Source: Octopus vulgaris
Lineage: Eukaryota
Assembly: GCA_951406725.2 (NCBI GenBank)
Contig: OX597841.1
Location: 18,538,001 to 18,602,000, forward strand
Length of the DNA stretch: 64,000 bases
Reading direction: 5' to 3'
Shown here: piece after piece, positions 8,251-41,590 of the stretch
How positions within the stretch are numbered: the first letter of the stretch is position 1
Layout of the letters: each line of letters opens with the position of its first letter
Made by a program: the position numbers and the translations under genes
The notes under the pieces: generated by a model
The model's input: the letters and a program-made list of their open reading frames with translations, nothing else
The model's database searches: none
What the model was told of the DNA's origin: nothing

Positions 8251-8323
<73 letters not shown>

Positions 8324-12334: not shown

Positions 12335-12626
12335 CAGGGTTTCTCATTTTTACCTTTGGACCCCTTTAATTACTATTTTATTCTGGTGGACCCCCAGAGC
12401 CAGTCAATGTTTAAAAACTAGTTTTGTAGTTACTTTTTTCAAAATTCTATTTTGTTTTCCACACATTAACTTATGTAGGTTGATCTACATAAAATGTTGG
12501 AGAAAGAAACCTAGCTATTTCTTGCAATTCATACCAGTACATACTTGCTTGCATGGACCCCACCCCCACCCTCAAGTCTTTTAATGGACCCTCAGGGGCC
12601 ATATAGACCCTGGTTGAAAACCACTG
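12335..12626. mobile_element. hAT (Charlie-like) MITE with 8-bp target-site duplication
   Basis: Termini cagggtttctca / tgaaaaccactg, internal ggacccc motifs, and identical GTTTAAAG flanks at 12327-12334 and 12627-12634. Confidence 0.85.
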
Positions 12627-13394
12627 GTTTAAAGTGTGATAGGAAAGGAACAGATCTGATGTTGCAGAGGTGGTACATGGCCACCCTACCTTATATGTGA
12701 GCTACTGGAGGGGAGCTGAAAAGAGCAATAAAGATAGTGGTGACAAGATGCTAAGAGAGGACCTTCAGAGGAAAAGAAGAAAGTGTGAGGGCAGAAAAGT
12801 GGGAAGGAGGTGTTTCAGGAGAATGATAGGGTGAGAGTGAATGTAATGAATTGAGAACATGGGTGGTGGGGTAGTTGATGGAGGGAAGGTAGGAGAGGAA
12901 GTGATGACTGGAGAAGAATGAAGAACAGCAGGATGATGATAATAGTGGAAATCCTTACCTTATTGAGAAAGGATATTGATTGCAATAGTCAATAGAATAG
13001 AAATAAAGCTGAAATTTCCCCTTCTGTGTGGCCCAGTACCAAATGTTCCACAGCTGCTCAATGGCTGGGGTCCCTTGCTCTACATGACAGAACATCTTCA
13101 TATCTGTCCCTACTGTAAAAAGGGAATGTTTTCAAAGGATGGGTTCCTGTTGTTCTAATTAACAGAACTATCCACTTATTGTATTAATGTGCTATTAAGG
13201 CTGTAAAAGGGAGAGTAAGTCATTCTTTCCATCCATAGGCACCATGGGTAAGTGCTGGTTAACCCTTTGCTCTCCTGTGCCAGGGATGTGGTGAAGATGC
13301 ATGCAGCAGGACATTGGATGACTAACAAAGCAGAGGGGTCACTGGACCAATGGCTTGAAGGTTATTATGGTCAAACAGAAGACCTGTACCATCA

Positions 13395-13587
13395 GCACAA
13401 GTGTAGTTAGAGTGTGTGCCACCCAGGGTGGCCCTTCGATTTGCTGCCCCAGGACCCCACAAAAATACATATTGCCTACAGCAAGCACAAAAATGGTGTC
13501 ACCCCTGGGCCACCACAAAGAATACATATTGTATACAGCAGACCCAAAGATGGTGCCACCTCTGCCCCACCTCTAGCTATGCTAGTG
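13395..13587. mobile_element. Putative MITE with internal ~60-bp duplication
   Basis: Imperfect inverted ends cacaagtgtagttagag / ctctagctatgctagtg; ccacaaa.aatacatattg...acagca...aaa.atggtg.cacc occurs twice. Confidence 0.55.
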
Positions 13588-14054
13588 ACTGACAACAGTT
13601 TGAGTGTCAACAAGCAAGGTGCTACAGTGGGGTAGCCTTGTCATTGACCATGTTCGGTGCACTCTTGTACGCCACTTGGTATTTGGCTTGGCGGCCCAAG
13701 AGGCAGTCTGGTGGTGAGGGTCAGTGCCAACTGTGTTACTGCGTTACTCACAGAAGTGGGGAACCTTGAAAGGATGTAGTAAATGTGACAGCAGTGGTTG
13801 TAAGTAACTGGGAGGGGCTAGCAAGAGCTCTGCACACAGGCAGCTTGCTCCAGTGGTTACAGTGAGTGCTGGTTGAGTATTCCACAGACACTTTGTACTT
13901 GTAGTTATATGAGGAGAGGGTTGTATATGGGAAGTAAAATAATCTAGATGGATGAGGAAAGAGGGAGTCTGGAAGACGAAATGGAACCAAGACATTGACA
14001 GACATTGACTGTTGCTGTCCATGGACTGAAACAGGGAAATGATGATTGACATTT

Positions 14055-14467
14055 ACTCTTACTCTTTACTCTTTTACTTGTTTCAGTCATTTGACTGCGG
14101 CCATGCTGGAGCACCGCCTTTAATCGAGCAACTCGACCCCAGGACTTATTCTTTTGTAAGCCCAGTACTTATTCTATCGGTCTCTTTCGCCCAACAGCTA
14201 AGTAATGGGGACGTAAACACACCAGCATCGGTTATCAAGCAATGGTGGGGGACAAACACAGACACGCAAACACACACACACACATACATATATACATATA
14301 TACGACGGGCTTCTTTCAGTTTCCGTCTACCAAATCCACTCACAAGGCATTGGTCGGCCCGAGGCTATAGTAGAAGACACTTGCCTAAGGTGCCACGCAA
14401 TGGGACTGAACCCAGAACCATGTGGTTGGTAAACAAGCTACTTACCACACAGCCACTCCTACGCCTA
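14055..14467 (-). mobile_element. SINE family A, full length
   Basis: Complete head, core and tail in reverse. Confidence 0.9.
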
Positions 14468-15028
14468 TTGATTACTTACCCTGAATCAATTCGTTATCCT
14501 GTCACCTGGCAGGTCAATAATGGTGGATTTTGTTGCATTGTCTATGTTTATTGTTTGTCTTCTGCAACATAAACAATCTTCAATATAATTGTCCTAAATC
14601 ATGTTATTCCACCCACTTTGCTTTCCTCATCCCTCCAGCCTATATTCTTCTTCTAACACTCACACAACCGTTCTACTTAGATATATTAATTTCTCTTAAT
14701 TCCTCTTCAGTTAATTGCTCTTCCTCAATTTTCACCTTTACCGTTATTTTGCTTCAAATTTACAAGCGACGACAGCTAAGGGGCGATAATTCCCCACAAA
14801 CATAGAAGAGTTACTCCCCTTGAGGGAAATGTCAGTTTGAAGAAACGTAAATATCTGAACTTGTTCAATCTGTTCAAGACTGGAGTGGAGACTGGAGGCC
14901 TGAAGTAGCGGCGTGGGACCAGGGAAGCTGAGGGAAGACACCACCTTATGACGACTCATACCGTTTAACGAATATTAATGCATCACTTCATTTATTATAA
15001 TTCTTTTGTCATTTTTGATATTAATTGA

Positions 15029-15042
15029 TATCTATCTTTCTA

Positions 15043-15073
<31 letters not shown>

Positions 15074-15106
15074 GTCTGTCTATCTGTCTGTCTATCTATC
15101 TGTCTG

Positions 15107-15205
<99 letters not shown>

Positions 15206-15234
15206 GTCTGTCTATCTATCTGTCTGTCTATCTA

Positions 15235-15266
<32 letters not shown>

Positions 15267-15282
15267 TCTGTCTGTCTATCTA

Positions 15283-15345
<63 letters not shown>

Positions 15346-15384
15346 GTCTATCTGTCTATCTATTTATCTATCTATCTACCTATG

Positions 15385-15417
<33 letters not shown>
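15029..15417. repeat. (TCTA/TCTG)n tetranucleotide microsatellite
   Basis: Direct reading. Similar tracts at 28811-29050, 50080-50130, 50985-51095, 51340-51440, 53218-53297 and 62525-62990. Confidence 0.95.
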
Positions 15418-15419
<2 letters not shown>

Positions 15420-15662
15420 TCATCATCATCATCATCATCATTTAGCGTCCGTTCTCCATGCTAGCATGGGTTGGATGGTTCACCTGGGGTCTGTGAAACC
15501 AGAAGGCTGCACCAGGCCCAGTCTGATCTGGCAATGTTTCTACGGCTGGATGCCCTTCCTAACACCAACCACTCCGTGAGTGTACTGGGTGCTTTTTACG
15601 TGCCACCGGCACGGGGGCCAGGCGAGGCTGGCAACGGCCACGAACGGATGGTGCTTTTTACG

Positions 15663-15712
<50 letters not shown>

Positions 15713-15728
15713 TAATTAGATAGATATA

Positions 15729-16890
15729 CAGTAACATGCAAAAGTCTTCATCTACTTTAAACTCGTGTAAATTTCTACCAATTGCCAACCTATAAGTCGA
15801 TGTTTCACATTGTGTTTTTTACAGATGAAACATTGGCCCTGTTGGAGTCATTTCCATACCTAATCCTTATATTTTGTAGTCGGGGTTCTGAATGAGAGGC
15901 GAAGATGCGAGACGACCACCAAAAACGGTCATGCAAAAGTTTTCAGCCACCTCACAGAAACCAATCAAGATACAGTGTTTGAAAACAGAAAAATGTCTAT
16001 AATGAAAATTTATTGCATAATGTTCATTTCAGAAATTTACTGAACATTGTTAATATCTTGTAGCTTGCTTACCAACCACATGGTTCCGGGTTCAGTCCCA
16101 CTGCATGGCATCTTGGGCAATTGTCTTCTGCTATAGCCCCGGGCCGACCAATGCCTTGTGAGTGGATTTGGTAGACGGAAACTGAAAGAAGCCCGTCATA
16201 TATATGTATATATATATATGTGTGTATGTGTGTATTTGTGTGTCTGTGTTTGTCCCCCTAGCATTGCTTGACAACCGATGCTGGTGATTTTACGTCCCCG
16301 TCACTTAGTGGTTCGGCAAAAGAGACCGATAGAATAAGTACTAGGCTTACAAAAAATAAGTCCCGGGGTCGATTTGCTTGACAAAAGGTGGTGCTCCAGC
16401 ATGGCCGCAGTCAAATGACTGAAACAAGTAAAAGAGTAAAAGAGTTAAGAGAGTATCTCGTGTGGCTTCCTTTAGCTTGAAAAATTGCTTCAATGTACCT
16501 GAGAAGAGATGTGTACAAATCCTTCACCATCTTCACAGGTATGAGATGCCATTCTCTGTGGCTGATCTCCCACAACTCTTCAAGATTGCATGGATTCTTC
16601 TGACAAACACTTCTCTTCTGTTCTGTCCACATTTGCTCGATGATGTCAGGGCTCTGAGCTGGACAATCTTTAAATAACGGTAACACCTTCATCAGCCAGA
16701 CTCTGTAGTGTTGAACATAATCTGTGGCACAGACCTCTGTCATGCTGAAAAATCTCACCTTCATCCAAGTCTTGTATCAAATTGTCCTTCAGCAACTGAA
16801 TGTATTTGGCATTGTTCAAGTTATCGTCAATTTTAACTAACTTTCTCGAACCATCAATTTTTGTGTATCCCCAAAGCATCATGTAATGTG
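15729..16890 (-). mobile_element. 3' half of a Tc1-family DNA transposon, interrupted by a SINE
   Basis: MMLWG...YIQLLKDNL...IFQHD...H, then after a frameshift PAQSPDI.IEQMW...W..IP...LY.SL....EAIFQAKGSHTRY. Candidate terminus TA|CAGTAACATGCAAAAGT at 15729. Confidence 0.8.
16062..16450 (+). mobile_element. SINE family A inserted at the Tc1 stop-codon region
   Basis: Family core and (aaaagagt)n tail; imperfect flanking repeat aatatcttgt (16052-61) / agtatctcgt (16452-61). Confidence 0.9.
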
Positions 16891-16947
16891 GATCATTTTG
16901 CTTTCCTGGAGGCCTTCTAGCAAGTTCTCACTTATTATATATATATA

Positions 16948-17990
16948 CTAGCATTATGACCCGTCGTTGCCGGGTCATAGTGCTAGTGCATGTATATATG
17001 TGTATATATATGTGTACATATTACAAGTACATTTATATATATACATCTACACATAAAATACAAAATACAAAGTTATATCTTGATATCGCTAGTAATAACA
17101 ATACTCAAAATATATAACAGACTGGAATTGTAGGCCCGTCTCTTGCAATTTCGATCAATTGTATCATGTCCTACCTCTTGTATAGAAGTGTGGCTACAAT
17201 CCAGCCTACCTCTACTTCTGGTGGGGGGGACATTTTAATTTTTTTCCGGGAAGTCCTACATCCCAGATATAAGGGTAAAAATAAAATATTTCCACTTTAC
17301 AAGGTTCGAGTCGATTACTTCCTTGCACGCTCCGTTGACTCGAACCTTGCTTCAATTGTGGCAAATTTACCGCCTCTGGTTAGATACTTGATATCTTTCA
17401 TAGTTGCACCAAGACACTTTTCAATGGTGCTTTACTCCAGGTGTTCAAATCTTTTTTCTCTACATTGTATACTTTATAGACAATAGGCTTTTCTTTAATT
17501 TAATTTTTTATTATCCATCTGGACTATTCCATTTCTGCATGCTAATTTTATTTTTAATTTATTCCCATTCATGTGAAACCACTTATTCAAGTTCAAGTCA
17601 TTGATGCAATTTTATACCAATTGCTATTTTTACTTTTGTTATGTTACGATTATATTATACTTTAGTTTGATTTTAATTATTACTTACTACATATAATTCA
17701 ATTGTTATTATTATCTCTAATTTTTATTGTTAAAGTGAAAGTATGTGACATAAAATAGAGAAATGTTTTTGTTTCACTTTTAACACATAATACTGAAATA
17801 GTGGAGAAGATATGATATTGCTATGGACTCGCTGTAGGCAAGAAGTTGAACATTTTTTTTGCCCATGAAACTACATGGACCCTAAGTAAGGCATGTGTAA
17901 AATTTGAATGAAATTGGTTGTGTAGTTCTCAAGTTTTAGGGAAACACACAGACAGACAGACACACATTCTCAGTTTTATATATAGAGAGA
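16948..17990 (-). mobile_element. Non-autonomous Helitron-type element
   Basis: Minus-strand 5' end A|TCTCTCTATATATAAAACTG followed by (GTCT)n and aaccaatttcattcaaattttacac. The 3' end has a hairpin (gacccg...cgggtc) followed by CTAG|T. Insertion lies between A and T. Confidence 0.78.
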
Positions 17991-18781
17991 TACACACACA
18001 TATACATACATACATACATACATACACACATACACACATAAACATATATATAAATACATAGATATATATAAATATATATATGTACATACATGTATATGTG
18101 TATATATATATGTGTGTGTGTGTATGTGTGTATGTATGTATGTATGTGTGTGTATGTATGTATGTGTGTGTGTGTGTATGTATGTATGTATATATGCGTG
18201 TGTGTGTGTATGTGTGTGTGTATGTATGTGTGTGTGTATGTGTGTGTGTGTATGTATGTATGATGAATGTATGTATGTATGTGTATGTATGTGTGTATGT
18301 ATGTATGTATGTGTGTGTGTGAGTGTGTGTGTGTGTATGTGTGTGTGTGTGTGTGTGTGTCAAATTCCACTCGTTACTCAACCCGAACCTATATTAGAAG
18401 ACACTTGTCCAAGGCGCCACACATTTGGGTCAAAATCAGCTTTCAAATCACAGCCAGGACATTACTTGTTGTTGTTGCTGTTGTTGTTGTTGCTGACCTG
18501 TCGTTCGTTTTTAAACGTATTTCCTTTTTTTTCTTTTAATCTAGATTCAAGCCTGATTTGAAACCCATTCACTGTTCATTGTATTGACTGCTTGGAGAGG
18601 GAGAGAGAGGGAGAGAGAGGGAGAGAGAGAGAGAGAAAATAATAGAAAGAAGCGAAATACAATAACAACAGAAGAAAAATAAACAACAAACAAACAAAGA
18701 ACAAAAGAGCAAAATCCAAAACTATCACGAAAGGCAAAAAATATAATACGTTGATTCGCTGACAATTTGCTAATTGAGATA

Positions 18782-21700
18782 ATGAAGCCGTCGTCGACTG
18801 AGAGAAATGTTCAAGACACAAAAGACAACTGGGACAATGTGAATGATGCCGACAGCGACGGTGAGATTGCAGAACTTGGTAACGATGACGATTTACTTGC
18901 GGATCCTAGCAACCTCGGTCGGATGCTGCAAACTATTCCTCAAGGCAAATACTCAGAAACGCAGAGGGACGCTGAAATTTACTGCAGCAGCCAGCAGTAT
19001 ATGTCGAAGGAATTTCTGACACAGACCGACGGGGCCAAATGGCAGATATCGGGTCAAATCGATGACAAAATTAACACCAACAATGCCTTGCGTGATTGTT
19101 TGGGTCTTTACAAGTCACAAGAAAGCATTTGGCAGAATAGTGACGAGGACCTTGTTGCTAGGGAGGAGGAAGAAGAGGAGGATAGAAGCCAGAACCCTAA
19201 TTATACCCCGACAGCCGTTGACTTTATTCACGAACCTATCCCACATATTTGGGACCTTTCTTCTTGTGGTTCTACAAATCTGACAAACAGGGTTGATTTT
19301 AACATTCCGAACTCATCGGATGACTCTGAAACGTGCAAGGGTAAAAGCCCGGACTCAATCGAAATAATGGCACCAGATTCTCAGCTCCAAAAATTTGCTC
19401 CGTGTTTTGTCACAAGCAGTTTGGATGATAGGGACGATGCCCCTACATCCACTTTGAACTCACCGTTTAAGATATTTCAAAGTCACGTTAAACCCTGCGA
19501 GGATTTAGATTGTAACAGGCTCCTACACCAGCCAAGTGTTACTCATCGATCTAAAGACAGGGAATTGGAAGATTCACCGAAGAAGAATACACCTAACCAG
19601 AACAGATTCGATCACGAGTCTTGTGATGGTTCTAAACTCGACTTGGACGAAGTTTGTGAGCTGCCATTTAGTGAAGGTAACGCCGAGGCGTGTGGTTATC
19701 AAAATTCATACTCATCTTGCATTACTGTGAGTAGTGATGATGAAAATACTTACGACAGTTCGCTCAAATCACACCATTACTATAGCAACAGATATTCACC
19801 ATCTGTCGATACGCTCCAGAGAAAGTGTCATTTAAGTGAAACCGATATCACTACTCCCACCCCTGATCTTCCAGATAATGTGCTGCAAGTTTCTTATGAA
19901 GGCCACCTGAAAAATGAACGCGATCACAAGCACCAACACGACGACCTCATTGTAGTAAATAAATTGGAAGCTTACAAAGAGACGTTTGTGTTGAGTCACG
20001 GGACTAGTAATGAGACATGCAGAAGTTTTACACCAGAAACACAACACCAATCTCAATTGTGCAACATTGTAAAACCCTCACAGCATCCGGGTCTCAACCA
20101 CTTATCTGTATTTCGCCCTCGAACCTCTCCTCCTCAGAGCGCCAGTGTCGTTAACTGTGTTGCTACGCTGCCTTCGCTTCCTCAGTCTATTGTTCGTTGG
20201 GACAATGCCTCGGGTTGCAGTTCAACAGACGACATGAAAGGAAACAGCAAGCCAGTATTTAAAAACCTGAATATTTTGGATGACCGACCAACCTATCCAG
20301 GAATAACAGTCTCTTCAGAAAAAATAACCGAAGAGTCTTTAGGCAGACCAGAAAACATCGGTAATATATTAGTAAAAAATCCTCAGCTCGTAGCAAACAC
20401 AAACAAAGATACATCTACATCCGCATGCACAAAAGCATATGCACACACAACCACAGATCTAGATACAAATACAATCATAAATACAAACACTGACCGGTCC
20501 ACAGTTAAAACTGGCAAAAGTGAAACGCAATGTAGTCTGCCAAGATTTTCTACTACAGAAAAAACGCAGAGATTTCCGAATCAAGTCGACAACTCCTCCC
20601 TGAACTCAAACCCGAGGGACTATCGAACTATCCCCAACTGGGACCCTGTTGCTGTTACAAGAAATACTGTTATTACAGGGGACAATCGTAGCATGAAGAA
20701 GCTCCCCGAAGAGAAAACCCCTCACAGCGAGGGCAGAATTGTGAAGGTTGTTCAGCGAGACATTGACGAAACTGATGCAAGTGAAAAATGTATTAATGAT
20801 AATAACTTACTAAATGTCGATGAGAAGTATCATAGAGAGGATGTATATAATGATGTATATAATGATGTATATAATGATGTATATAATGATGCCACTACAT
20901 TATATGGATCACAGGATGGTAAAGATATCAAAAATAAAACTATTCGTCATAACCAATATACCGATAACACGCTTACATGGGGAGATGCATGTAAAGTTAT
21001 CAACCCCTTGTATGAAACATGGGATAATAAAGATATGGAAAACGGAAGATGTACAAACCTCGGCTGCAAGAATAATGAAAGTATTCCCTCGAAAGATAGA
21101 TATAAATCTAAAAGCGAAATCGAGAAAGAAGACAGAAGCGAAGAAAAGGAAGAAGAATCGGTTAAAAGCAACAGCAACAATAATAATGAAGATGCTGATG
21201 AATGTAATAATGTAGAAGAAACCGAAGAAAAGTGTGACCTCGTTGATACTCTGTCTCTCAACGCAGAATCTAGAGACAGTGTTAATCATTCTGGTGTTTG
21301 TAGTCTGAAGTTGGATAAGAGAAACTACTTCAGAAACAGCGACGATGATTTATTAGCTGTGACCGTTGGAGAAAAGAATTATTCTGATGCCATCGTCCCG
21401 TCTTACTATACTGCAGCGGCTGTAGTAAGTGTGGGAAGGGACGATTGTCAGATGTACGGTTCACAGAGGGAGGGGGACAGCTACAGCCAGAGTAATAGTA
21501 GTAGCTACATCTTCGATGACTTTGATTGCATGAATTCAGCCTCGCAGAACGAGACCTTTCACTTTAAAACTCAGACAGAGGAAAACCAAATTGAAGAAGA
21601 AGAAGAAGAAGAAGAAGAAGAAGAAGAAGAAGAAGAAGAAGAAGAAGAAGAAGAAGAAGAAGAAGAAGAAGAAGAAGGAAGAAGAAGAAGAGGAGGAGGA

Positions 21701-24700
21701 GAATCTACAAAACCCCATACAGGCAACAATGTTTTAGCAGAAACAGAACCAAAGCATGAGCCCATCAGCGAGCCATCTTATTGCAATAGCCTTACTAGTG
21801 AAACAGCAAACTTCCTTCATGCAAGCAATTCACAGATGGATTTATTTAACGACTGCAGTGACCTTTTGCCAGATTATAGCCCCACGAAAAAAGGTGAGGC
21901 AAGAAATGGTCGATTTTATCCTAATATCCTGGATGTCGGGGAGAACCAAATAAGTGAAACAATAGAAGAGCAAGTAGAAAGCAATAACATTTGTTTAGCA
22001 AAACCAACACCTATTTGTCAGCCCATTAATATTCTTCCCGAATGCGAAAATACCATCAAACGTAGCTCAGAGACGAATACTCTAAACCGTAGCCAAAAAA
22101 ATATTGTCGAAACGTGCTCGAATGATTTTCGCAATTTCTGCAATAATGCGTGTGTTCTCGTCAATGAAGAAGAGGAGGTTAAAATAACAGGTCAATCCTC
22201 AAAGAATATGAACTCTGATTATAAAAACTTGGACGTAAGTCGAAATCTGATGGGCGCATGTAACAGTAATTCAGATGTAGGTGAGAATCGGCCAAACACA
22301 AATTACGGAAACTCAGGTAAAAGCGATAACAAACAAGAAGTATCATACAAAAGTAAAAGTAGTTTAACTGAAACAGAACCAACATGCCAACCCATTGAAG
22401 TTCTATCTTATTGCGATGATGCAGCCAACAAGAAGATAAGCCTTCCTTATACAAGTAGTTCACAGACGAGTATCTTCAACGGCTGCAGTGACGTCTCAGA
22501 CTATAGTAAAAACAATAAAGATGTAATCAGAACTGATCGATTTTATCCCCAAATCCAGGTTGACGAGGAAAACCGAAAAAGTGAAAACAAAGAGAAGTAC
22601 GTGGAAAGCAATAACAATTGTTCAGCAAAACTAGGGTTGAGGTGTCAACCCATTGTTATTCCACCTAATGACAGAGATGCCGTCATATATAATTCACAGG
22701 TAAATGTCCTTAACTACAACAGAAGTGATATTGTTGAAGTGTGTTCGAAAAACGTTCGTAATAATGTTCCTGTTGACGACAATGCAGAAGAAGGGGATAA
22801 CGAAGCGAGCCACTCTACAAACATGAACACAAATTATAGGACTTTAAGCGTTAAACGAAATGCAACTGACGAAGATTACAGTAACCCTGATGGAATGCAG
22901 ACGAATTCCAGGAGGGGAAATTCAGATGAAAGTGAAGATCCAATGAACGCCAATCGCAGTAAGACAGACGTAAAGGGAAAGTGGACAAACACGAATGTTC
23001 GTGGAAACTTAATGAATTCGAATTATGTAAATTTGCATATAAGTGATAATTGTTTGAATGAAAATTGCAGGAACTCAGAAGTTTGCGGAAATCAGACGAA
23101 CACGAATCACAAAAAGGAGAAGGCAGAGGAAGAGAGGGAAAAAGAAGAAGATGAATCTATGAAACCCGACAACAGCACGAGTGGTTTAGCTGAAACGGAC
23201 CCTAGATGCCAACCCACTGAAGTTCCATTTCTGTACTATCCTGCAGCCAGCGAGAAAGAAAATGTTTATCACAGAAGCTGTTCCAAGATGAATAATCTTA
23301 AGGGTTGTTGTGAGGCTGAATTAGACGATGAACACACCAATAAAGATGTACTCAGAAATGATGAATTTTATCTTAAAATCCAAGTAGATGAGAAGAGGAG
23401 GAATGAAAAGAAAGCAGGGAGTGTGGAAAGCAATGACTGCTATTTAGCAAAATCACAGTTTATTAGTCAATCCGTTGTTGATTCACTTAAAAGCAGAGAT
23501 GTCCTGGAACACAGTAGAAATGACGCTGGTAAAACATGCTCGAATAACGCTAGCAGTTTTTACAATGATAGAGCTGTCTTCACCAATTCAGATGAGGATT
23601 ATGAAAGAGCCGAATCCTTAATGAGCACCAACGTGAATAACAGAAATTCTGACGTAAGTGGAGAACAAACGATGAGAGTCAATCACGGAAATTTGTACGT
23701 AAGTGGAGAACAAACGATGAGAGTCAATCACGGAAATTTGTACGTAAGTGGAGAACAAACGATCCCAAATTACGGAAACTTGGATGTAAGCGGCCAACAA
23801 CAAAACGGAGACTCAAACTTGAACGGAACTCGAATGAAAACAAGCTACAATAAACCTGAAGGAAAAGAAGAAGAAGAAGAAGAAGAAGAAGAAGAAGAAG
23901 AAGAAGAAGAAGAAGAAGAAGAAGAAGAAGAAGAAGAAGAAGAAGAAGAAGAAGAAGAAGAAGAAGAAGAAGAAGAAGAAGAAGAAGAAGAAGAAGAAGA
24001 AGAAGAAGAAGACGACCAACAAGGACAAGAATCTTTGGAAGTCGACGATAGAAAGAAAAGTTTAGTTGGAATGGAATGTCATCGTGATGTCGTTCTGTTG
24101 ACGTGCTGTGATGCAACCAGTGAAAGAACAAGCGTTTCTCACACAAGTAGTTCACAGATGGTCGTCTTTAACGACGGCACTAACGCTGTCTCAGATTATG
24201 GTCCCACCCACGAAGATGTGACAAGAAATGATCGATTTCACCCTACAATCCTGGCTGGCGAAGAGGATCGAAGAAGCAAAACTGCAGAGGAGGAGTGTGT
24301 GGAAGTCGATAACAGCAGCATACGTTTAGAACCAGCAGACTCGTGTAAAGGTGTCACATGTAGATCACAGGCGAATATCCTTAACCAGAACAGAAATGAT
24401 ATTGTCGAAGCGTGTTCAGGTGAGGTTCACAATTTCTGCAATGACGTCCCTATCCTCAAAAATGTAGAAGAGTTTAAAGAAAAAGTCCAATCCTTAAAGC
24501 GTACGAACTCAGATTATGGAAATCCGCACGCAAGTCAAAATCCGACGAAAGAAAATCCCAACAACCCAAATGTATGTGGAAATCGAATGAATGCTAATTA
24601 CGGAACATCAGGTGTAAATGGAAATTTGACAAACAAAAACTGTGGAAAGTCAGACATAACTAAAATTCCAAGAACAGAAGAAAATTGTGGGAAATCGAAA

Positions 24701-27644
24701 GAAAGTGGCAAACTGGTCGACGCAAATTTCAATGAGTTAAACGTAACTACAAATCAGATGAACACAAGTTATAGAATCTCAGAAGTAAGTGGAAAACTAA
24801 CGAAGGAAAAGCTCAGCATCACGGAAGACGGCAACGATGAGGAAAAAGAAAAATCTAATAAAATTCACAAAAGTACGAAAAATTTAGTTGAAACGGAACG
24901 GAAGCGTCATCTGGTTGAAGTTTCGTTAATGTGCAATGAATGCAACGAGAATGCAAACTTTTCTCACACAAGCAGTTCACAGACAAAGATTGTTAATGGC
25001 TGTAGTTGCACCAATAAAAATGTTGTCAGAAACGACGAGGAGAAGCAAAGAAGACAGAAGGTCGAAGAGCACGAGAAAAACAATAAGAGAAGAAAAGCAG
25101 AGTGGAAGTGTCAGTCCGTTGTAAGTCTATCCAGAGACAGAGATGTTAGCATACACGGCTTACAGACGAATATCATGAACTGTGGCAGAAACGGTTTTGT
25201 CCAAACGTTTGCGAATGATGTCCTTAATTTCTGCAATAATGTCCATGCAGTCGGCAATGTAGAAGAAAAGGAAAACGAATCAGGGCATTGTTCAGCGAGG
25301 ATAAACTCAATATATGGAGATTCAGGCGTTTGTCGAAACCCGACGAACGCAGACGTATGTGGAAATTGGAATAACACAAATGATGGAAACTCGGTAAATT
25401 CAAAATGCAAAAAATCAGAAGCGAACGGGAGTCAGACAAAAGCAGACGACAAAACCCCAGAAAAAGGAGATAAGGAAGGAGAAGGGAAACTAGTAAGGAA
25501 AATCCTCAAAGGCAACGGTGAAATAGAAACAGACCGTCACACCATTGAAGGTCATTACGGAAATAATGCAGCCAGCGACAGAGCCAACATCTCTTACAGA
25601 AGCAATTCACAGATGGATAGATTTAATGGTGACACCAATAGTGACGTCACCAATGATCGATTTTATCCCCAAACCCAGGAAGACAAGGAAGCCCGAATAA
25701 GCCGAAAAGAAGGAGGGCATACGGAAACTGATAACTGCCGCAGCTCTTTAGCAAATCTTGGTTCCCTATGTCAATCAGTTGGTATTCCACTTATTTGCAG
25801 TGATGCCATAAGCAGCTTGCAGACGAATGTCTTAAATCAGATCAGTAATGACCGTGTCGAAGGGGGTTCAAATAACGTTTACTCCTTTTGCAATAATGTC
25901 CCTGCTCTCATCAGGGCACAAGATGACGAAACAAATCAAAGCTCAAACAGGATGAATGCAACTAACGGAAACTTGGATGTAAATCGAATTACATCCAATT
26001 GCGGTAAGTCAAACGACATTGGGAAGCGGACGAATTCCATCTGCGGGAAATTAGAGGCAGATGAAAATCGGGTGGACGCCAGTTGTGGAAACTGGAATGT
26101 AAATAGAAAAAGAACGAGTGAATATTGTGAAAATCTGCACGTAAGTGGAGATCAACCGGGAAACGCAGACGTAAGGGAACATTCTAGAAATTCAAATTAC
26201 GTTTACTCAGATATAAGCGGGGATAGAGTGAATTTATATCACGGAAAATTAGAAAACGGAGATAAGGAAGGAGAAGAAATGTCAATGAAAATCCACAAAA
26301 GCAACAATGATTTAGTTGAAACGGAACCGGAGCGCCATCCAAGAGAGGTTCCATTTCCATGCAATATTACAGGAAACGCGAAAGCAAACTTGTCTGAGGT
26401 AAACAACTCAAAGGTGAATAGCTTCAACGGTTGCAGAGACGTTGTCTCAGATACTGGCCTCGTCATTAAAAATGCAACTAGAGATGATCGATGTTATCTG
26501 AAAACCATGCCTGGCGATGAAGATGAAAGGGAAAAGGAAGTGGAAGTAGAATACGTGAAAACGTTCAATAGCAACAGTTCTTTAGCAAAACTAGAGTTAA
26601 GATGTCAGCCCGTTGATAATTCAACTCTGGATTCGCATACCACAGTACATAAGTCACAGGAGGCCAGCTTAAGCGACAACAGCAGCAGTGATATCGTCGT
26701 TGGACGTTCGAATGTCAGTCGAAATTCTGGCAGGGCTATCCCTTTTCTTAACAATGCGGAAGATAACTCACCAAGAAAGTTCTCAAACGGAACTAACCCA
26801 AATTACGGAAACTCAGACGTAAATGGAAATTTAACGAATAGAAATTACGGAAATTCGGAATATGAAGATAAGGATCAAGAAATATCTAAGAAAATCGACA
26901 ACAGCAATAATTATTTAGGTGAAGCGCAACCTAAGCATAATCCCACGAAGGTCCCATTTCTGTGCAATGCTGCAACAAGCAAGAGGACAGACTTTCCTTA
27001 CACAAGCAATTCACTGATTCACAACTCTCATGGCTGCACTGATGTTGTCTCAGATTATAACCACATTGAGGAAGATGTGGCCAAAGATGATCGATTTTCT
27101 CCTAAAACCCAGGCAAACAAGGAGGCCCGAGGAGGTCAAAAGGAAGGAGAGTATGTGAAATCCGACAAGAGCAGAAACAGCTCTTTACCTACAATAAGTC
27201 CTGTTTGCCAGCCCGTGGCTAATCCACCTGGATGCAGTGATGCCATAAATTGCTCACAGAGCAGTAATGATGCTGTGAAAAAGAGTTCGAATGACGTTCG
27301 TAGTTGCCGCAGTAATACTCTCTCTGTTCTCGACGATGCTAACGACGGTGGCTTAATAGGAGAGATATCGAACAGAACGAATAGAAATTGCAAAACCATG
27401 GATGCGGATGGAAATCGGACGAATGTAAAGAACCTCGCTCAAGATTCAAGTGGAAAGTCGACAAATGCAAGTTACGGAATCTCAGACTTAAATAGGAATC
27501 ACGCGAATACACCGCTATTCCGGATTGAAAATCCCAATTGCTCCGATGATCAGCGTGTACCTGCGGCCAATGACAAGACAGCCTCCTTCCCGATCATCCT
27601 CTCAATCGATCAGCAAGAATCTTTCTATTCTGATCTCCCACCAA
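18782..27644 (+). CDS. Giant (~8.86 kb) coding exon; unknown acidic, Asn/Ser/Cys-rich repeat protein (~2954 aa), probably continued by splicing
   Basis: Open frame 18767-27733 with an upstream in-frame TGA (18752-54) and first ATG at 18782 (A at -3). Pyrimidine-rich acceptor ending ctag at 18544; donor A|GTAAGT at 27645, followed by SINE-like sequence. No TE or non-triplet microsatellite lies inside. No recognisable domain. Confidence 0.8.
21740..27500 (+). repeat. Eight diverged in-frame tandem repeats (603-876 bp) inside the giant exon
   Basis: Units start near 21740, 22370, 23192, 24068, 24890, 25526, 26318 and 26921 (ETEP/ETDP-like). Most carry SQ...FNGC, (R)NDRF(Y)P, LAK...CQP/S, N.LN..RND.VE.CS....FCN and N-rich subrepeats. 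Confidence 0.85.
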
Positions 27645-27659
27645 GTAAGTATTATTATT

Positions 27660-27800
27660 TTGGCTGTCTTTACGTTCTGAGTTCAAATTCCGCCTTTCAC
27701 CCTTTCGGGGTCGATAATGTAAGTACCATTTGAGCACTGGAGTCGATATAATCGATTTACTCCCCTCCCCTCTAATGCTGGCCTGATACCAAAATTTGAA
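27660..27800 (+). mobile_element. SINE family C fragment
   Basis: tttacgttctgagttcaaattccgcc..tttcaccctttcggggtcgataa..aagtacca. Related copies at ~9672-9800(-), ~11830-11920(-), ~31860-32010, 52478-52600 and 52690-52860. Confidence 0.7.
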
Positions 27801-28221
27801 AAGCAAAATATTGTTGTTGTTGTTCTTGTCATGTCAAGCGCATTTGAATCCCTCCACGTTTCCCTGCGATCCATTATATCTGGAACCCATTTTTAAAAGC
27901 TTTGTATCCTACAACAGATGCTGCACATACGCTAGACAATGTTTCTTTTTCTGTCACATACTCGTCCCTATAGTCATAATTAACGTCCAATTTTATCTTT
28001 TCTTTGCCAACACTGCCCGACAGACGACGGGCTTCTTTCAGTTTCCGCTTACCACATCTTCTCACAAAGCTTCAGTCGGCCCTGAGCTATACTAGAACAC
28101 ACTCGCCGAAGGCGCTGCGCAGTAGCACTGAACCCAATGACCACAAGATTGAAAAGCAAACTTCTAACCACACAGCCACGTCTGTAAATAGTTTCTTCTT
28201 CATTGATTTTAGAAGAGAAAT

Positions 28222-28259
<38 letters not shown>

Positions 28260-28260
<1 letters not shown>

Positions 28261-28805
28261 AACGATGACGCTTATAGCAGCGACGACGGGAGTATTAACT
28301 CGTGTCCGAGTAACTAATCTGTAGCGAGTGATTGAACCTCTTCATCCTGAAGGGTGCGAAGAGTGCCGGTGCCTGAGGAGGCTGTTAAGGCCAAGGGTTG
28401 TATAGAAGAGCCGGGGGCGGCATATATTGCAGGGGAGGGTTGGTTGGGAGAGGAAGTGCGAATCGCTCTTTGCGCCTTCGACATCCTATTTCTTCCTCTC
28501 GTCTGTTATATTCCATCTTGTCCGTTCCCTTCACGATGTCATGCCGCTGTTTTGGCGGTCACTTGGCGAGTGTCTCCCAGGTATTTGGACTAATGGAGCA
28601 ACGGAAGAGAGTGGCCTTGAGCTCGTCTCGAAAACGGAATTCACAAATGGCCTTCAGGTGATATTGTTTAGGGTGGATCATGTATTGCGATCATCAGAAC
28701 CAAGCACTCGGTCATCCGCCTTCATCAGCGGCACCCTTGGCATTGGTGACATGCTGGACCTGGTTACAGGTGTTGCAGTGGATTGCCGGATGCTTCAGGT
28801 ATAAT
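28260..28805 (-). mobile_element. 3' fragment of an RTE-clade LINE
   Basis: Minus strand gives RFRDELKATLFRCSISPNTWETLA...RRRKERF...CNIC.R.F.T.LGLNS..RH, matching an RTE ORF C-terminus with a terminal zinc finger. Confidence 0.72.
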
Positions 28806-28810
28806 CGAGA

Positions 28811-28818
28811 TCTATCTT

Positions 28819-28893
<75 letters not shown>

Positions 28894-28925
28894 GTCTGTC
28901 TGTCTGTCTGTCTGTCTGTCAGTCA

Positions 28926-28956
<31 letters not shown>

Positions 28957-29952
28957 AGTCAGTCTGTCTGTCTGTCTGTCTGTCTGTCAGTCAGTCTGTC
29001 TGTCTTTCTGTCTGTCAGTCAGTCTATCTGTCTGTCTGTCTGTCTGTCTAGCTAGCTAGATGCCTAGCTAGCTAGATGCCTAGCTAACTTTTATACACCC
29101 CCCCACACACACACACTACATATGTGGGAAATTTTGATGAAACTTGACACGGGAATAGAACTCATGCCTGGAAACCTCATGGCATACTCAGATTGTTGAA
29201 AAAAAAATCGTTGCTAAGGCCCCTGGAAGGTATCCTTATATATATCGAATGTATTTCATTTTAACAGCCAAGGAAATAACCCATTCATTTTTCCGAAATC
29301 ATTTGATATAAATCAAATTGTGTATACTTTATTTCTTAGTATTTGAAATGTGAGAGTTATTTTCACAATTTCTCCAGTACAACCCTTAAACAAGTAAATA
29401 GTAGTTTCCTTAACAATAGATCCACTTATTTCAGTTAGTGACTTATTCACGAATATACCAACACTAGCGCTGCTGAGGGTAATATTATCTGCGAATGCAC
29501 AAAAGCTCTTTTCAGAGTTATTTACTATGAATTGTTATTATCTCATATCTGATTAGCCTGTTATTACATAACATGCCTCAAGATTTTAGTATACATACCT
29601 TATTGGTATTTCCCCTAAGTTAAAGTCCTTTCTTGTATATAGCCCTTTCTGGGTCAACAATACTTGAATTCTTACTATAAGGTAACTAATTTCATGTTAT
29701 AATTCTTATTATAAGGTAACTAATTTCATGTTATTATATAACTGACTTCACAATTTGCATATTCATAACTTATTAGGAATTCCTAAAAGCAAGGTCCTGT
29801 GTAAGACAGTTCGGTATTCTCTGTAAATGCACAAAAGCCATTTTAAGGGCTACATACTTTGTATTGTTGTTATTGGATTAGCGAAACAGTTATGAGAACG
29901 GAACTAAGAGATAAGCCCTGCTTTCCTGAGAATTCCCGGGTACGTTAGCTAG
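28811..29952 (+). mobile_element. Putative non-autonomous Helitron-type element
   Basis: 5' (TCTA/TCTG)n followed by attttgatgaaacttgacac; 3' imperfect palindrome cctgagaattcccggg followed by CTAG|T at 29949-29953; internal ~33-bp tandem duplication at ~29670-29735. Confidence 0.6.
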
Positions 29953-29965
29953 TATGTATATGTAT

Positions 29966-30524
29966 ATTGCACCTCCCCACACACACGCACTGACAGGGAA
30001 GCTATCCGCCCCATGACCGTCTTTGGAATGTACATATATATATATATATATAAAAAGGAAATGAAGAAAATGCTGACAAAATAATTTAAGTAAGGGAGAG
30101 TGTATTTAATTAGGTGAAAGTTCTTTTCTTTAAACAAAAAAAAGAGAAAAATTGGGTTAGAATACAATGTACATTTTTACCGGTTGCGCATTTGTTATGC
30201 TTATCAAAAGATATTTTGAGTGAGATAGAGTTCCTTTCTGATTGATTTTTTTCTCTTATCTGACTTTTGATAAGATAAGTCAGATAAGAGAAAAAAATCA
30301 ATCAGAAAGGAACTCTATCTCACTCAAAATATCTTTTGATAAGCATAACAAATGCGCAACCGGTAAAAATGTACATTGTATTCTAACCCAATTTTCTCTT
30401 TTTTTGTTTAAAAAAAGAACTTTCACCTAATTAAATACACTCTCCCTTACTTAAATTATTTTGTCAGCATTTTCTTCATTTCCTTTTTTTATATATCACA
30501 ACTCGTGTTCCACATCTCCTTTTT

Positions 30525-30568
<44 letters not shown>

Positions 30569-30629
30569 CAAAGACGGTCATGGGGCGGTTAACTTCCCTG
30601 TCAGTGCGTGTGTGTGGGGGAGGTGCAAT
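29966..30629. repeat. Large fold-back inverted repeat
   Basis: Inner arms ~30052-30266 and ~30277-30488 are near-perfect with a 10-nt spacer; outer arms are 29966-30028 and 30566-30629. Confidence 0.95.
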
Positions 30630-30774
30630 GGTGCAGTGGTTAGGGCAGCGGACTCGCAGTCGTAGGATCGCGGTATCGATTCCCAGACCGGGCAAGTGTT
30701 TATAGAGCAAAAAATCTAAAGTTCCACGTGGCTTCAGCAGGGGGTGGTGGCGAATCCTGCTGTACTCTTTCGCG

Positions 30775-31220
30775 TATGTATGTATGTATGTATGTATGTA
30801 TGTATGTATGTATGTATGTATGTATGTATGTATGTATGTATGTATGTATGTATGTATGTATGTATGTGTGCGTGTGTGTGTATGTATGTATGTATGCATG
30901 CATGCATGTATGTATGTATGTATGTATGTGTGTATGTATGAATGTATGTATGTATGTATGCATGCATGCATGCATGTATGTATGTGTGTGTGTGTATGTG
31001 TGTGTATGTAGGTATGTATGTAGGTATATGTATGTAAGTATGTATGCATGCATGCATGTATGTATGTATGTATGTATGTATGTATGTGTGTGTGTGTGTA
31101 TATATGCATGTATGTATGTATGTATGTATGTATGTGTGTATGTGTGTGTATGTATGTATGTATGTATGTATGTATGTATGTATGTATGTATGTATGTGTG
31201 TGTGTGTGTGTGTATGTATG

Positions 31221-31251
<31 letters not shown>

Positions 31252-31358
31252 GTGTGTATGTGTGTGTATGTATGTATGTATGTATGTATGTATGTATGTG
31301 TGTATGTATGTGTGTGTGTGTATGTATGTATGTATGTATGTATGTATGTGTGTATGTA

Positions 31359-31389
<31 letters not shown>

Positions 31390-31398
31390 ATGTATGTC

Positions 31399-31430
<32 letters not shown>

Positions 31431-31506
31431 TGTATGTATGTATGTATGTATGTATGTATGTATGTATGTATGTATGTATGTATGTATGTATGTATGTATG
31501 TATGTA

Positions 31507-31541
<35 letters not shown>

Positions 31542-31548
31542 ATGTATG

Positions 31549-31582
<34 letters not shown>

Positions 31583-31765
31583 TGTATGTATGTATGTATG
31601 TATGTATGTGTGTGTGTATGTATGTATGTAGGTAGGTATGTATGTATGTATGTATGTATGTATGTATTCATGCATGTATGCATGCATGTATGTATGTATG
31701 TATGTATGTATGTGTGTTTGTGTATGTGTATGTATGTGCACGCGCGTGTGTGTGTGTGTGTGTGT
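30775..31765. repeat. (TATG)n / (TG)n microsatellite array
   Basis: Direct reading, ~1 kb. Confidence 0.95.
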
Positions 31766-32578
31766 TTTAATAGTTATGACGACTTTTCCACGTGAAAACT
31801 GTTTCGTTTTTATCAACAATCTTAAATTAATTCTGTTGCTAAGCAACTAACGAATTAGCGGAGTCATTAGGACAAATCGCCTGGATCTCTGTGCACTGAG
31901 TTCAAATCTCGCTAAAGTCAACTTTATCTTTCAGAACTGATGAGAAACCACCAGTCCCGGAAGGTGGACTCAATACGTGGCGCCACATATTAAACTCGGT
32001 ACTTTGTGGTTTCTGAGTTTTTCAAATTCCTTACCTGGTTTAACAAATACTATTTTACCCTTGGCTGACTTTAGTGGAAATCGTTTTGTGCCACCATTCT
32101 TTTCGCCACTCCCTCAGACTCAAAAAAAATTTTTAATTAGTAAAAAAAAGAGGCGGTGTTATCCTCCTATCGCTAATTAAACGAGTAAAACAAAAAAATA
32201 TACATATTTACATAAAATATTTTACTGAAGCTAACAAGGGAGGCGACCCTTCAATAACCAAGTCATACTCGACATTATTATTATTGGGCTTATGTTGTTA
32301 CCTCCCTTGTACATATCTTACTTGTTTCGGTCTTTAGACTGCGGGTCATGCTGGCCACTGTCTTGATGGGTTCGAGTCCAACAAATCGACCGCAAGGCTT
32401 ACTTTTTCTAAGCCTGGTACTCATTCTGTTAGTTTTTTAAAAAAAATTTTTTGTCGAACCATTGAGTTACGAGTATGTAAACCAACCAAACTGGTTGTCA
32501 AGTAATAAGGCTGGGAGGACAAACACAAAAACACACACACACACACAGTTTTATATATATATACGTATATATATATAC

Positions 32579-32624
<46 letters not shown>

Positions 32625-32625
<1 letters not shown>

Positions 32626-32860
32626 TATTATATTAAATTAGAGATAAATCCATTATTAGGTAAATCAAACAATGAAAAACTTAAGCCAATACATAAAATT
32701 AATTCATTTATATTATTTTAAATATATATCATTATCTTTTATTTTAATACTTTTGATATATATTTAAAATAATATAAATTAATTAATTTTATGTATTGGC
32801 TTAAGTTTTTCATTGTTTGATTTGCCTAATAATGTTTTTATCTCTAATTTAATATAATAT
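32625..32860. repeat. AT-rich fold-back inverted repeat
   Basis: Arms ~32625-32731 and ~32754-32860, spacer ~22 nt, set between (TA)n tracts. Confidence 0.9.
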
Positions 32861-32953
32861 AATATTTTACTATAAAATTGGATTTAATCCTAAATCTGAT
32901 TTTTCCCTGTAAGTTTGGATTTATTCCCTAATATTTTATTATATATATATATA

Positions 32954-33144
32954 TCCCAGATGAACCAACTTCATGGCAGGAGGTGCAGATGAGGGCTGCT
33001 GCATCGAACTCTCTCATGCACCAAATGGCAATTGCTAAAAAGCATTCGTGAAGTAAAATCATGTAGCAACACCAAATGGCGGTGCCCCAGCATGGCCACA
33101 GCTTGTGAGCTGAAACTAGATAAATAAAAATAAAATAAATAAAA

Positions 33145-33145
<1 letters not shown>
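32954..33145 (+). mobile_element. Extreme 3' end of a CR1-group LINE related to 6952-7625
   Basis: atcccagatgaaccaacttcatggcaggag..atgagggctgctgcatcgaactctct (IPDEPT..E..MR.AASNSL) with tail ggtgccccagcatggccacagcttgtgagctgaaac. Confidence 0.8.
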
Positions 33146-33227
<82 letters not shown>

Positions 33228-33240
33228 GTATATATATATG

Positions 33241-33271
<31 letters not shown>

Positions 33272-33302
33272 GTATATATGTATATATATATGTATATATA
33301 TA

Positions 33303-33337
<35 letters not shown>

Positions 33338-34409: not shown

Positions 34410-35074
34410 TAGGTGTGAGTGAATCTCTGTGTGTGTGTGTGTTCCTCGAAATTGCAGGCCTTGTGCTAAAATTTGAAATTTTACCCTTCCCCTTCTTATT
34501 TTTACAATCTTCTTACTTTTTAGAGAGACATTTCAACTACAAAGGGAACTTTACATGGAAGAAACCTTTAGAAGACTGTTCTGTGACTGTGAGGACGAAT
34601 TCAGCAGAAACAGGTAAACTAAAGCAGTATGATTACCATTGTTGTTTGACCTCCTCATCAGGCTCGCCTTGGCTGTGGCCTTCTCATCATTTATTTAGAT
34701 TTAGCCTTGAGATGAATTGTTAAGAAGATAAGAATGTCCTTCAGTGGCTTAGTGGTTAGGGTGTTGGATTCACGACCGTAAGATTGTGGTTTCCATCCCT
34801 GGACTGGGTGAGCCATTGTGCTCTTGAGCAAAACACTTCATTTCACATTGCTCCAGGCCACTCAACTGTAGATATGAGTTTAGCCCGGGGAGAGGGATGG
34901 GCTCTGCCAGGCTTTCTCACCCCAATGACAGCCAAGGGGTTTAGGGACTTGGCATTGTCATTACCTTGTCAGTAGCCCAGTGAATAAGAATACCTTGCTG
35001 CAGGGTTATCATTATCAGGGAGAGAACTCATGACAAGAAAGACCCTAAACTGAGAGACAAGATCTGGCAGTTAT

Positions 35075-37052: not shown

Positions 37053-37086
<34 letters not shown>

Positions 37087-40296: not shown

Positions 40297-41590
40297 AAAG
40301 ACACTAAGGTGTAATTTGAAGGAAATCCAGTCGCTATTTCTGGCAGGATGAGTGACCACATTGACACAGTAATCAAATATAGTGCAGATGTAAAAAAAAA
40401 AAACAGACAAAAATAAGCAGAGAAATAAAGGTTTGTAGTTCAAATAGAGTTGGGTACCCTGTAAACACCCAGGAATAAAACATAAAGTGCTTATAACGAC
40501 AGATAGATGTAAGTATTAAGAAATCCTCCATGTTGAGGTTTATGACAAGTCCTGAAAATGTTCAAGTTTAATGCCTGTGTGGTGACATGGAAAAGTACCT
40601 GTACAGTGTCACATAAAAGTGCCATGAAAAAGTGCCATGAAAAAGTGCCATGAAAAAGTGTCGATGTGGTGTCACATAAAAGTGCCCCTGTTATACCATG
40701 TCAAAGCAGCCATGTGGTGCCATGTAAAAGTGCCTTTGTGGCACTACATACAGAACCCAGCACACCCTGTAAAGTGGTTGGCATTAGGAAGGGCCTCATC
40801 CAACCATAGAAACCAGATCAGACTGGAGTCTGGTGCAGCTCCCCAGTTTGCCAGGTCTGGTCAAACCGTCCAACCCATGCTAGCACGGACAATGGGCATT
40901 AAATGACGATGAATAACCATAAAATTTGTTTCTTGTCTTCGGCAGCAATTGTTGATTCTCCAACAATGAATATTAGAAAGATTTTACGCATTGGGCTTTC
41001 AAAGCGACAGAAAATACCTGCACTACATCCATATATTAAGAGAAGAAGAATTGATGATGAGTGATGTATACAAGAGTTCTGTTGTTTATACTTTATACTT
41101 TTTATACCTTTTAGCACTTACGTTCAAAGTGTCCAGATCTGGTCTCTCACACTTATCCTACCATGTCATTCTAAAAGTAAGCAATCACATCATCAAAATC
41201 TTGAAGCTTCAAGCAATTGCATGATTCATTTAAAGTAATATAAATACATTCGACAGAGTTACCTGAATGCTAAAGGGTTAAGGAAAGAGTAGTGGTGATG
41301 GATTTGTGGAGTATTTTAGGGTTTTCAGTTTTCTATAGCCCCAAGATGACCATAATTTGTTAGTGGATTTGGTAGACAGAAACTGAAAGTCTCCTGTAGT
41401 TTATAAATATGTGTGTGTGTGTGAGAGAGAGAGAGTGTGTGTGTGTGTGTGTGTGTGTGTGAGTGTGTATGTATATGAGTGTAAGTGTGTATGTGTGCGT
41501 GTGGAAGTGTGAGTGTGTGTGTATGTACATGAGTGTGTGACTGTGTGTATGTGTGCGTGTGAAAGTGTGAGAGTGTGTGTGTATGTACAT

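Follow-up and report, generated by a model that had tools for sequence, protein, structure and literature searches.

A giant exon of Octopus vulgaris is the main part of a gene with a RAD51-binding-type C-terminal motif and a RAD51AP2-like layout

The window analysed here is a 64,000-nucleotide (nt) stretch of the Octopus vulgaris genome (assembly GCA_951406725.2, contig OX597841.1, positions 18,538,001 to 18,602,000 of the forward strand). It contains an exon with an open reading frame (ORF) of 2,954 codons. Judged from the window and from annotated proteins of two other Octopus species, this giant exon makes up the bulk of a gene with three exons. The gene probably works like RAD51AP2, with a product that would use its final 25 residues to bind RAD51 and would act in meiotic recombination. 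A preliminary description of the sequence had reported a single exon of about 9 kb that encodes a lineage-specific protein of about 2950 amino acids (aa) and of no recognisable family. The giant exon was confirmed and matched no Pfam family, but two further exons lie within the window, and the last of them carries a motif of the RAD51AP1/RAD51AP2 type. A gene that is laid out like RAD51AP2 and ends in a RAD51-binding-type tail also speaks against the proposed lineage specificity.

A search with the 70 codons at the 3′ end of the giant exon led to the two additional exons; it matched 2 proteins among 133 candidates, XP_036371267.1 of O. sinensis (893 aa) and XP_014790363.1 of O. bimaculoides (1,278 aa). 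Both are named 'putative uncharacterized protein DDB_G0282133', a name without a link to RAD51. The O. sinensis protein is identical to the giant exon at 813 of 823 residues (98.8%), and the O. bimaculoides protein at 986 of 1190 aligned residues (82.9%), with 8 small gaps. In the numbering of the O. vulgaris protein, one of these sequences starts at aa 1764 and the other at aa 2132, so that its first 1,763-2,131 residues are missing from them; they share with it the same 3′ part and the same two final exons. Both extend 70 residues past the giant exon, and these residues map to exons 2 and 3 of the window (Table 1). The mapped exons have canonical AG/GT ends, with a last acceptor that yields one Ala fewer here, giving coding exons of 2954, 30 and 39 codons. 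The joins between the exons are taken from the annotation of these two species and from one contig end of sequencing run X16; a splice-site scan of the window did not pick out exons 2 and 3. Identity to O. bimaculoides is 95% over the final 41 residues, compared to 83% for the giant exon. Exon 3 also encodes KRRR, a predicted nuclear signal.

The tail of the protein reads LRIGLSK, six further residues and LHPYIK (residues 2998-3016). R316, L319, L328 and H329 of RAD51AP1 and L1134, L1143 and H1144 of RAD51AP2 are described as required for RAD51 binding (PMC1636435). The octopus counterparts of those residues are all present, including L3002, L3011 and H3012, and the Leu-to-His spacing of 10 is the same as in both human proteins. 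Tyr-Leu-Lys after His-Pro is described for RAD51AP2 and not for RAD51AP1 (PMC1636435). At this position the octopus tail has Tyr-Ile-Lys, with Ile for Leu, while a second octopus gene, the RAD51AP1-like gene on C7 discussed below, has HPTVK. In RAD51AP1, LRLGLSR (Site-M) and Leu-His (Site-C) occupy two grooves of RAD51 (PMC12704761), and the octopus tail has both sites. The Site-N of RAD51AP1 is given as K-x-x-K-W-x-P-P (PMC12704761). In the octopus gene, F-T-W-K-K-P, encoded by exon 2 (34550-34567), retains only W and the last P and is a loose W-x-x-P echo of this site. When exon 3 was compared with Pfam, the sole family was PF15696 (RAD51_interact), with 16.6 bits and an E value of 0.0092 at positions 22-39 of 39. 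When the 2.8 Gb genome was scanned with the motif as a DNA pattern, there were 5 matches, compared to 0 for the reversed control. The full protein motif is present in 3 of the 5, namely in the C7 gene and in two copies of exon 3. The chance of the motif is about 1e-11 per position, for a pattern that was chosen after the sequence was seen.

The likeness to RAD51AP2 extends to the architecture of the gene. Human RAD51AP2 has 1,159 aa and coding exons of 1083, 27 and 49 residues (PMC1636435). Both genes consist of one very large and two small coding exons, neither protein has a recognisable domain outside the C-terminus, and in both the motif lies entirely in the last exon and reads R-x-G-L-S...L-H-P followed by Tyr-Leu/Ile-Lys. 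The octopus protein differs in being 2.6 times longer, in coming from a protostome, in carrying eight repeats and two poly-Glu tracts and in having a more acidic extreme C-terminus. With RAD51AP1 it shares Site-M (LRLGLSR in RAD51AP1) and the Leu-His of Site-C at equal spacing, an upstream W-x-x-P and a disordered character. However, RAD51AP1 is a ubiquitous protein of 335-352 aa with DNA-binding sites, compared to 3,023 aa in octopus, and its Site-N reads W-V-P-P (W-N-P-P on C7) instead of W-K-K-P.

The RAD51AP1-like gene is located at C7:23557046-23560130. It reaches 40.8 bits with PF15696, carries the complete Site-M and Site-C in its last exon and encodes W-N-P-P where its penultimate exon ends. 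Its exon matches the human RAD51AP1 chains 9QNC and 9QN8 in the PDB (E 0.005). Because of this match and of the W-N-P-P exon end, the place of RAD51AP1 is already filled by the C7 gene, which on these sequence features fits RAD51AP1 better than the giant-exon gene does. No giant exon was found in the 80 kb upstream of the last C7 exon. It is therefore likely that the octopus genome has both a RAD51AP1-type and a RAD51AP2-type gene. A RAD51-like gene (C1, ~123.64 Mb) and a DMC1-like gene (C5, ~105.89 Mb) are present as well.

Two other loci came up in these searches. A 25.2-bit PF15696 match at C1:180793323-180793361 was set aside, since the frame that holds it has only 18 codons from stop to stop; it is a decayed copy or a chance match. 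An intronless 359-codon gene of the RAD51 family at C4:88679340-88680080 is probably a RAD51 paralogue, perhaps RAD51B.

The reading frame of the giant exon is real, and its chance origin is excluded by shuffling: the longest ORF in the shuffled exon had a mean of 101 and a maximum of 191 codons (200 shuffles). The two alternative frames contain 143 and 314 stops. The boundary signals named in the preliminary description, the AG at 18543-44, an in-frame stop (TGA at 18752) upstream of the start ATG at 18782 and GTAAGT at 27645, are all present in the sequence. The ~9-kb exon at 18545..27644 holds 2,954 codons up to the donor, but its first 237 nt are noncoding and form a putative 5′ untranslated region (UTR). 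In keeping with use of the donor at 27645, a 640-nt contig of run X16 (a run whose kind is not on record) aligns to 27336-27644, and its match ends exactly there, with 331 further letters; contigs of runs X17 and X19 read through the donor to 27685. The contrast between repeat-rich flanks and a clean exon was confirmed as well, with 15 di/tetranucleotide runs in 8000-18544 and 45 in 27645-38000 versus 0 in the exon.

The predicted full protein has 3,023 aa, 339 kDa, a pI of 4.8 and a net charge of -193. It contains no transmembrane-like segment (highest 19-residue hydropathy 1.23). Its acidic and probably disordered character agrees with the preliminary description; AlphaFold2 on repeat 2 gave a mean predicted local distance difference test score (pLDDT) of 34, which fits disorder but rests on a shallow alignment of 8 rows. 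SQ/TQ sites, the consensus of ATM/ATR, number 32 in the whole protein versus 17 expected.

Most of the protein consists of repeats. Self-comparison resolved eight degenerate tandem repeats that start at 21683, 22313, 23135, 24011, 24833, 25469, 26261 and 26864 (aa 968 to 2954) and make up two thirds of the giant exon. These had been overlooked in the preliminary description, which listed as the only tandem repeats the (GAA)28 and (GAA)48 tracts and the 12-nt and 45-nt units; all four were recovered, both GAA tracts in frame. The repeats have a mean pairwise aa identity of 34% and DNA identities of 57-82%. The ratio of nonsynonymous to synonymous changes (dN/dS, omega) is below 1 in 28 of 28 repeat pairs, with a median of 0.6, for pairs that are not independent of each other. 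The end of the (GAA)28 tract resembles a compensated +1/+2 slip, and in either shifted frame a stop follows within 30 codons. The link between aa 1-940 and the remainder of the protein therefore depends on the phase at the end of this tract.

Further homology searches yielded no credible relatives. None of 7,995 scored candidates (1,645-5,236 aa) passed a whole-protein homology search. A search of aa 1-935 against 1.84 billion representatives gave no credible relative; the sole match, a bacterial-type repeat protein (E 1.8e-6), was judged spurious. In the ESM Atlas, neither the C-terminal 74 aa nor XP_014790363.1 had a usable match. No full-length match to a known protein or transposable element, which the preliminary description had named as grounds for refutation, was found. 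A transposable-element ORF is ruled out: the 5′ part has one genomic match and the 3′ part two, there is no reverse transcriptase, integrase or transposase domain, and the exon is spliced to two host-type exons. BRCA2 was considered as another comparison. Its exon 11 is a giant exon with BRC repeats, and the octopus gene resembles it in its giant exon, its eight repeats and its predicted C-terminal recombinase-binding site. With BRC motifs defined as in PMC11229353, a BRCA2-type BRC-repeat protein is ruled out by a single F-x-x-A in 3,023 aa and by the lack of a Pfam match.

The dN/dS and indel-phase check proposed in the preliminary description was carried out on four runs over 24015-28220, with 40 of the 62 differences listed. 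Among these, 25 are replacement and 15 silent changes (omega 0.46-0.61), and the probability of so many silent changes is 0.02-0.10. The sole exon indel among them has 3 nt, whereas three intron indels have 1-2 nt. A second genomic copy lies 555 kb upstream (C28:18004332-18026599, on the contig that holds the window) and matches the window from 22982 to about 43955. It is 5′-truncated, covers aa ~1401 through exon 3 with an open frame of 1,554 codons and abuts unrelated DNA without an N gap. In the exon it is ~99% identical, with 27 replacement and 12 silent changes and no stop, and its deletions of 45 and 75 nt retain the frame. It carries 17 of 17 variants common to X16, X17 and X19 and may thus be a haplotype that was left uncollapsed or a genuine partial duplication. 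In-frame indels, the absence of stops, the comparisons between Octopus species and the omega values together indicate that the frame is preserved while the residues drift; constraint at the residue level is weak (omega about 0.5-0.6). Hence real coding sequence, with an ORF far beyond the shuffles and a frame preserved between Octopus species, was borne out, and the purifying selection claimed earlier holds for the reading frame but only weakly for the residues.

Table 1. Features of the giant-exon gene (positions in the window)
Feature	Position	Strand	Basis or remark
Candidate acceptor of giant exon, polypyrimidine tract and AG (18543-44)	18520..18544	+	sequence only
Putative 5′ UTR, 237 nt, without ATG	18545..18781	+	UTR role inferred
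Stop-to-stop ORF	18755-27733	+	ORF listing
Giant coding exon	18782..27644	+	2,954 codons plus 1 nt; first in-frame ATG at 18782
Non-repetitive N-terminal region, aa 1-935	18782..21586	+	SQ/TQ 16 vs 7.3 expected
12-nt unit, x4.3	20840	+	tandem-repeat listing
(GAA)28 poly-Glu tract, in frame	21593..21702	+	tract end reads EGRRRRGGGES
Eight degenerate tandem repeats, 201-292 aa each	21683..27643	+	self-comparison
45-nt unit, x2.8	23636	+	tandem-repeat listing
(GAA)48 poly-Glu tract, in frame	23867..24010	+	75 nt shorter, still in frame, in second genomic copy
Splice donor GTAAGT, phase 1	27645..27650	+	sequence; contig end of run X16 at 27644
Exon 2, 90 nt, phase 1-1	34524..34613	+	mapped from O. 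sinensis and O. bimaculoides proteins
Exon 3, to stop	40946..41064	+	mapped from the same two proteins
LRIGLSK, Site-M-like	40984-41004	+	exon 3
LHPYIK, Site-C-like with RAD51AP2-type tail	41023-41040	+	exon 3

Several observations weigh against the assignment to RAD51AP2. The orthology is tentative: it draws on the exon layout together with a stretch of about 15 residues, with published residues and exon lengths standing for RAD51AP2 in the comparison. A short, motif-bearing last exon is common to RAD51AP1 and RAD51AP2 and does not discriminate between them. The PF15696 score lies below the 25-bit cut-off, so that Pfam membership is not reached. The full-length XP_036371267.1 and XP_014790363.1 have no PF15696 match, and a PF15696 search of the genome (20 candidates scored) did not return the giant-exon locus. 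A phmmer search of the PDB returned 0 chains at E<=10 for exon 3, but RAD51AP1 for the C7 exon. The last 55 residues contain 7 acidic residues in octopus versus 1 in human RAD51AP2, with similar basic residues (7 R, 4 K and 1 H in octopus; 7 R, 5 K and 3 H in the human protein). A W-x-x-P, of the motif class described in PMC11229353, lies 32 residues before Site-M, near the 28 of RAD51AP1, and mouse RAD51AP2 is reported not to bind DMC1 (PMC8754306). Residues 1-1763 are absent from every database protein found. A complex prediction for the C-terminal 70 aa (XP_036371267.1 824-893) with two copies of a RAD51 stand-in, taken from a metagenome contig 84% identical to the octopus exons, scored 0.00; with a tool unproven on disordered peptides, this counts neither for nor against binding.

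The strongest competitor is a cephalopod or molluscan duplicate of RAD51AP1 that gained a giant repeat exon independently, which would make the likeness to RAD51AP2 convergent and its role perhaps one in somatic repair or replication. The RAD51AP1-like distance of W-x-x-P from Site-M, a possible parent in the C7 gene, growth of the giant exon through local tandem duplication and the description of RAD51AP2 as vertebrate-specific (PMC1636435) all fit such an origin. On the other hand, the C7 gene ends in LHPTVK, without the Tyr-Leu/Ile pair common with RAD51AP2, and its exon is only 40% identical to exon 3. The intron follows W-x-x-P by 1 residue in C7 and by 16 here, and an arrangement of one huge and two small exons would have to arise twice. 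We therefore regard a RAD51AP1 duplicate as unlikely, but as a serious alternative. A lineage-specific acidic disordered protein, whose function resides in the repeat arm and whose C-terminal motif is a relic or a coincidence, would account for the 98% of the protein without family or distant relative and for the PF15696 score under the cut-off. It is quite improbable given that nine motif positions agree with fixed spacing at the C-terminus, that the full motif is shared in 2.8 Gb only with a RAD51AP1-like gene and that the tail is the most conserved part of the protein.

It also has to be considered whether the 2,954-codon frame is one functional unit. Its N-terminal 940-1,400 codons might owe their link to the rest solely to a base-calling error in the first GAA tract, or a shorter 3′ form might be the main product. 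The apparent slip at the end of this tract, with other frames that stop within 30 codons, would allow this. The annotated proteins and the second copy all begin downstream of the tract (aa 1764, 2132 and ~1401). Yet aa 1-935 is itself free of stops (chance ~1e-28) from the first ATG after an ATG-free leader, the repeats continue in a single frame from aa 968 and the second copy stays in frame across the second tract despite its two deletions. Words of 18545-21500 are also present at 0.63-0.86 in runs under four organism labels, so that a divided frame seems very improbable. Run X1 has 0.86 of these words and yet only three small depth-2 contigs on 24015-27644, which is unexplained and is not used as evidence. 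None of the runs listed with these words is on record as RNA, and 11 listed rows with shares below 0.3 and 4 without any share were left out of the analysis. Finally, a phase-1 acceptor at 50590 would keep the first transmembrane exon of a downstream TARP (stargazin-like) gene at 50591 in frame with the giant exon, which could then be its N-terminal extension. We reject this fusion, whose probability is negligible, because the annotated orthologues both end after a splice to exons 2-3; an assembly gap (44147-44246) also separates the two genes.

For the RAD51AP2-like reading, a mechanism can be proposed by analogy. The basic C-terminal tail may mediate nuclear entry. If it follows the cryo-electron microscopy structure of RAD51AP1, LRIGLSK would fit into the groove that separates the ATPase domain of RAD51 from its N-terminal domain, and Leu-His would occupy the adjacent shallow groove. 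Mouse RAD51AP2 is reported to bind RAD51, to load on meiotic axes via its C-terminus and to stabilise recombination intermediates, the strongest effect being on X-Y crossovers (PMC8754306). In a similar manner, docking of the octopus tail could lead to loading on RAD51 filaments at meiotic breaks and to stabilised recombination intermediates. The 2,950-residue arm would serve as a flexible acidic tether or scaffold for which length and frame outweigh sequence, and it might be phosphorylated at its SQ/TQ sites.

The surroundings of the gene hold several other features. A non-LTR (long terminal repeat) retrotransposon ORF with an RVT_1 domain occupies window 1-3041 (+) in two frames. By eye, a long inverted repeat lies in the intron at 30036-30530, with arms of ~240 bases around 30280, and is hairpin-like or like a miniature inverted-repeat transposable element. 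At 44147-48633, a 100-N assembly gap is followed by a 70-bp satellite (x33) and an AGT array (x614). Across the gap from the RAD51AP2-like gene lies the TARP gene, one of a tail-to-tail TARP-B pair. Its exon 1 is at 50591-50818 (+), and its later exons follow on C28 at 77433-77522, 81191-81325 and 94100-95479 in window coordinates; the inverted paralogue is at 284981-168779 (-). Between the copies, exon 1 and 170 nt of intron are 99% identical and the beginning of exon 4 is almost as similar, while exons 2-3 show many silent differences; this pattern suggests gene conversion. The plus-strand copy has a Gln/Tyr-rich tail that is ~360 residues longer, with repeated Y-x-x-L motifs. A TARPB1b orthologue is located on C9, and the expansion of TARP-B in octopus is known (PMC9282427).

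Published work describes RAD51AP2 as specific to vertebrates and to meiosis and reports a loss of X-Y crossovers in mouse mutants (PMC1636435, PMC8754306). A study of a sea cucumber genome already mentions RAD51AP1 by name (PMC9700323), so an invertebrate RAD51AP1 is not new. Among the papers listed, none reported RAD51AP2 in cephalopods, molluscs or other invertebrates, and those listed for invertebrates concern mammalian germ cells; the search left subscription journals and database family annotations outside, so an invertebrate RAD51AP2 may have been recorded there. Among the matches listed for RAD51AP2 in meiotic recombination, the titles were all vertebrate or general, and no joint phylogeny of RAD51AP1 and RAD51AP2 was found in the literature searched. 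As far as its available text goes, an octopus sex-chromosome study names Rad51d only; it proposes achiasmate female meiosis (PMC13669787). Genes of this kind escape profile searches: the diagnostic part has 15 residues, and the other 98% of the protein consists of repeat that drifts fast. A gene stored in databases only as truncated 'uncharacterized' proteins now gets a name and a cheap test. If the RAD51AP2-like reading is true, the gene would be a candidate entry point to the control of crossovers in cephalopods, for which an achiasmate meiosis in females has been proposed (PMC13669787). An octopus gene of this type beside a separate RAD51AP1 would date the pair to early bilaterians or reveal a striking convergence. 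We tentatively suggest, as a view slightly more likely to be wrong than right, that the RAD51AP1/RAD51AP2 pair is older than the protostome-deuterostome split and that octopus has a RAD51AP2 whose acidic arm, enlarged by repeats, serves as a scaffold for RAD51 filaments during meiosis.

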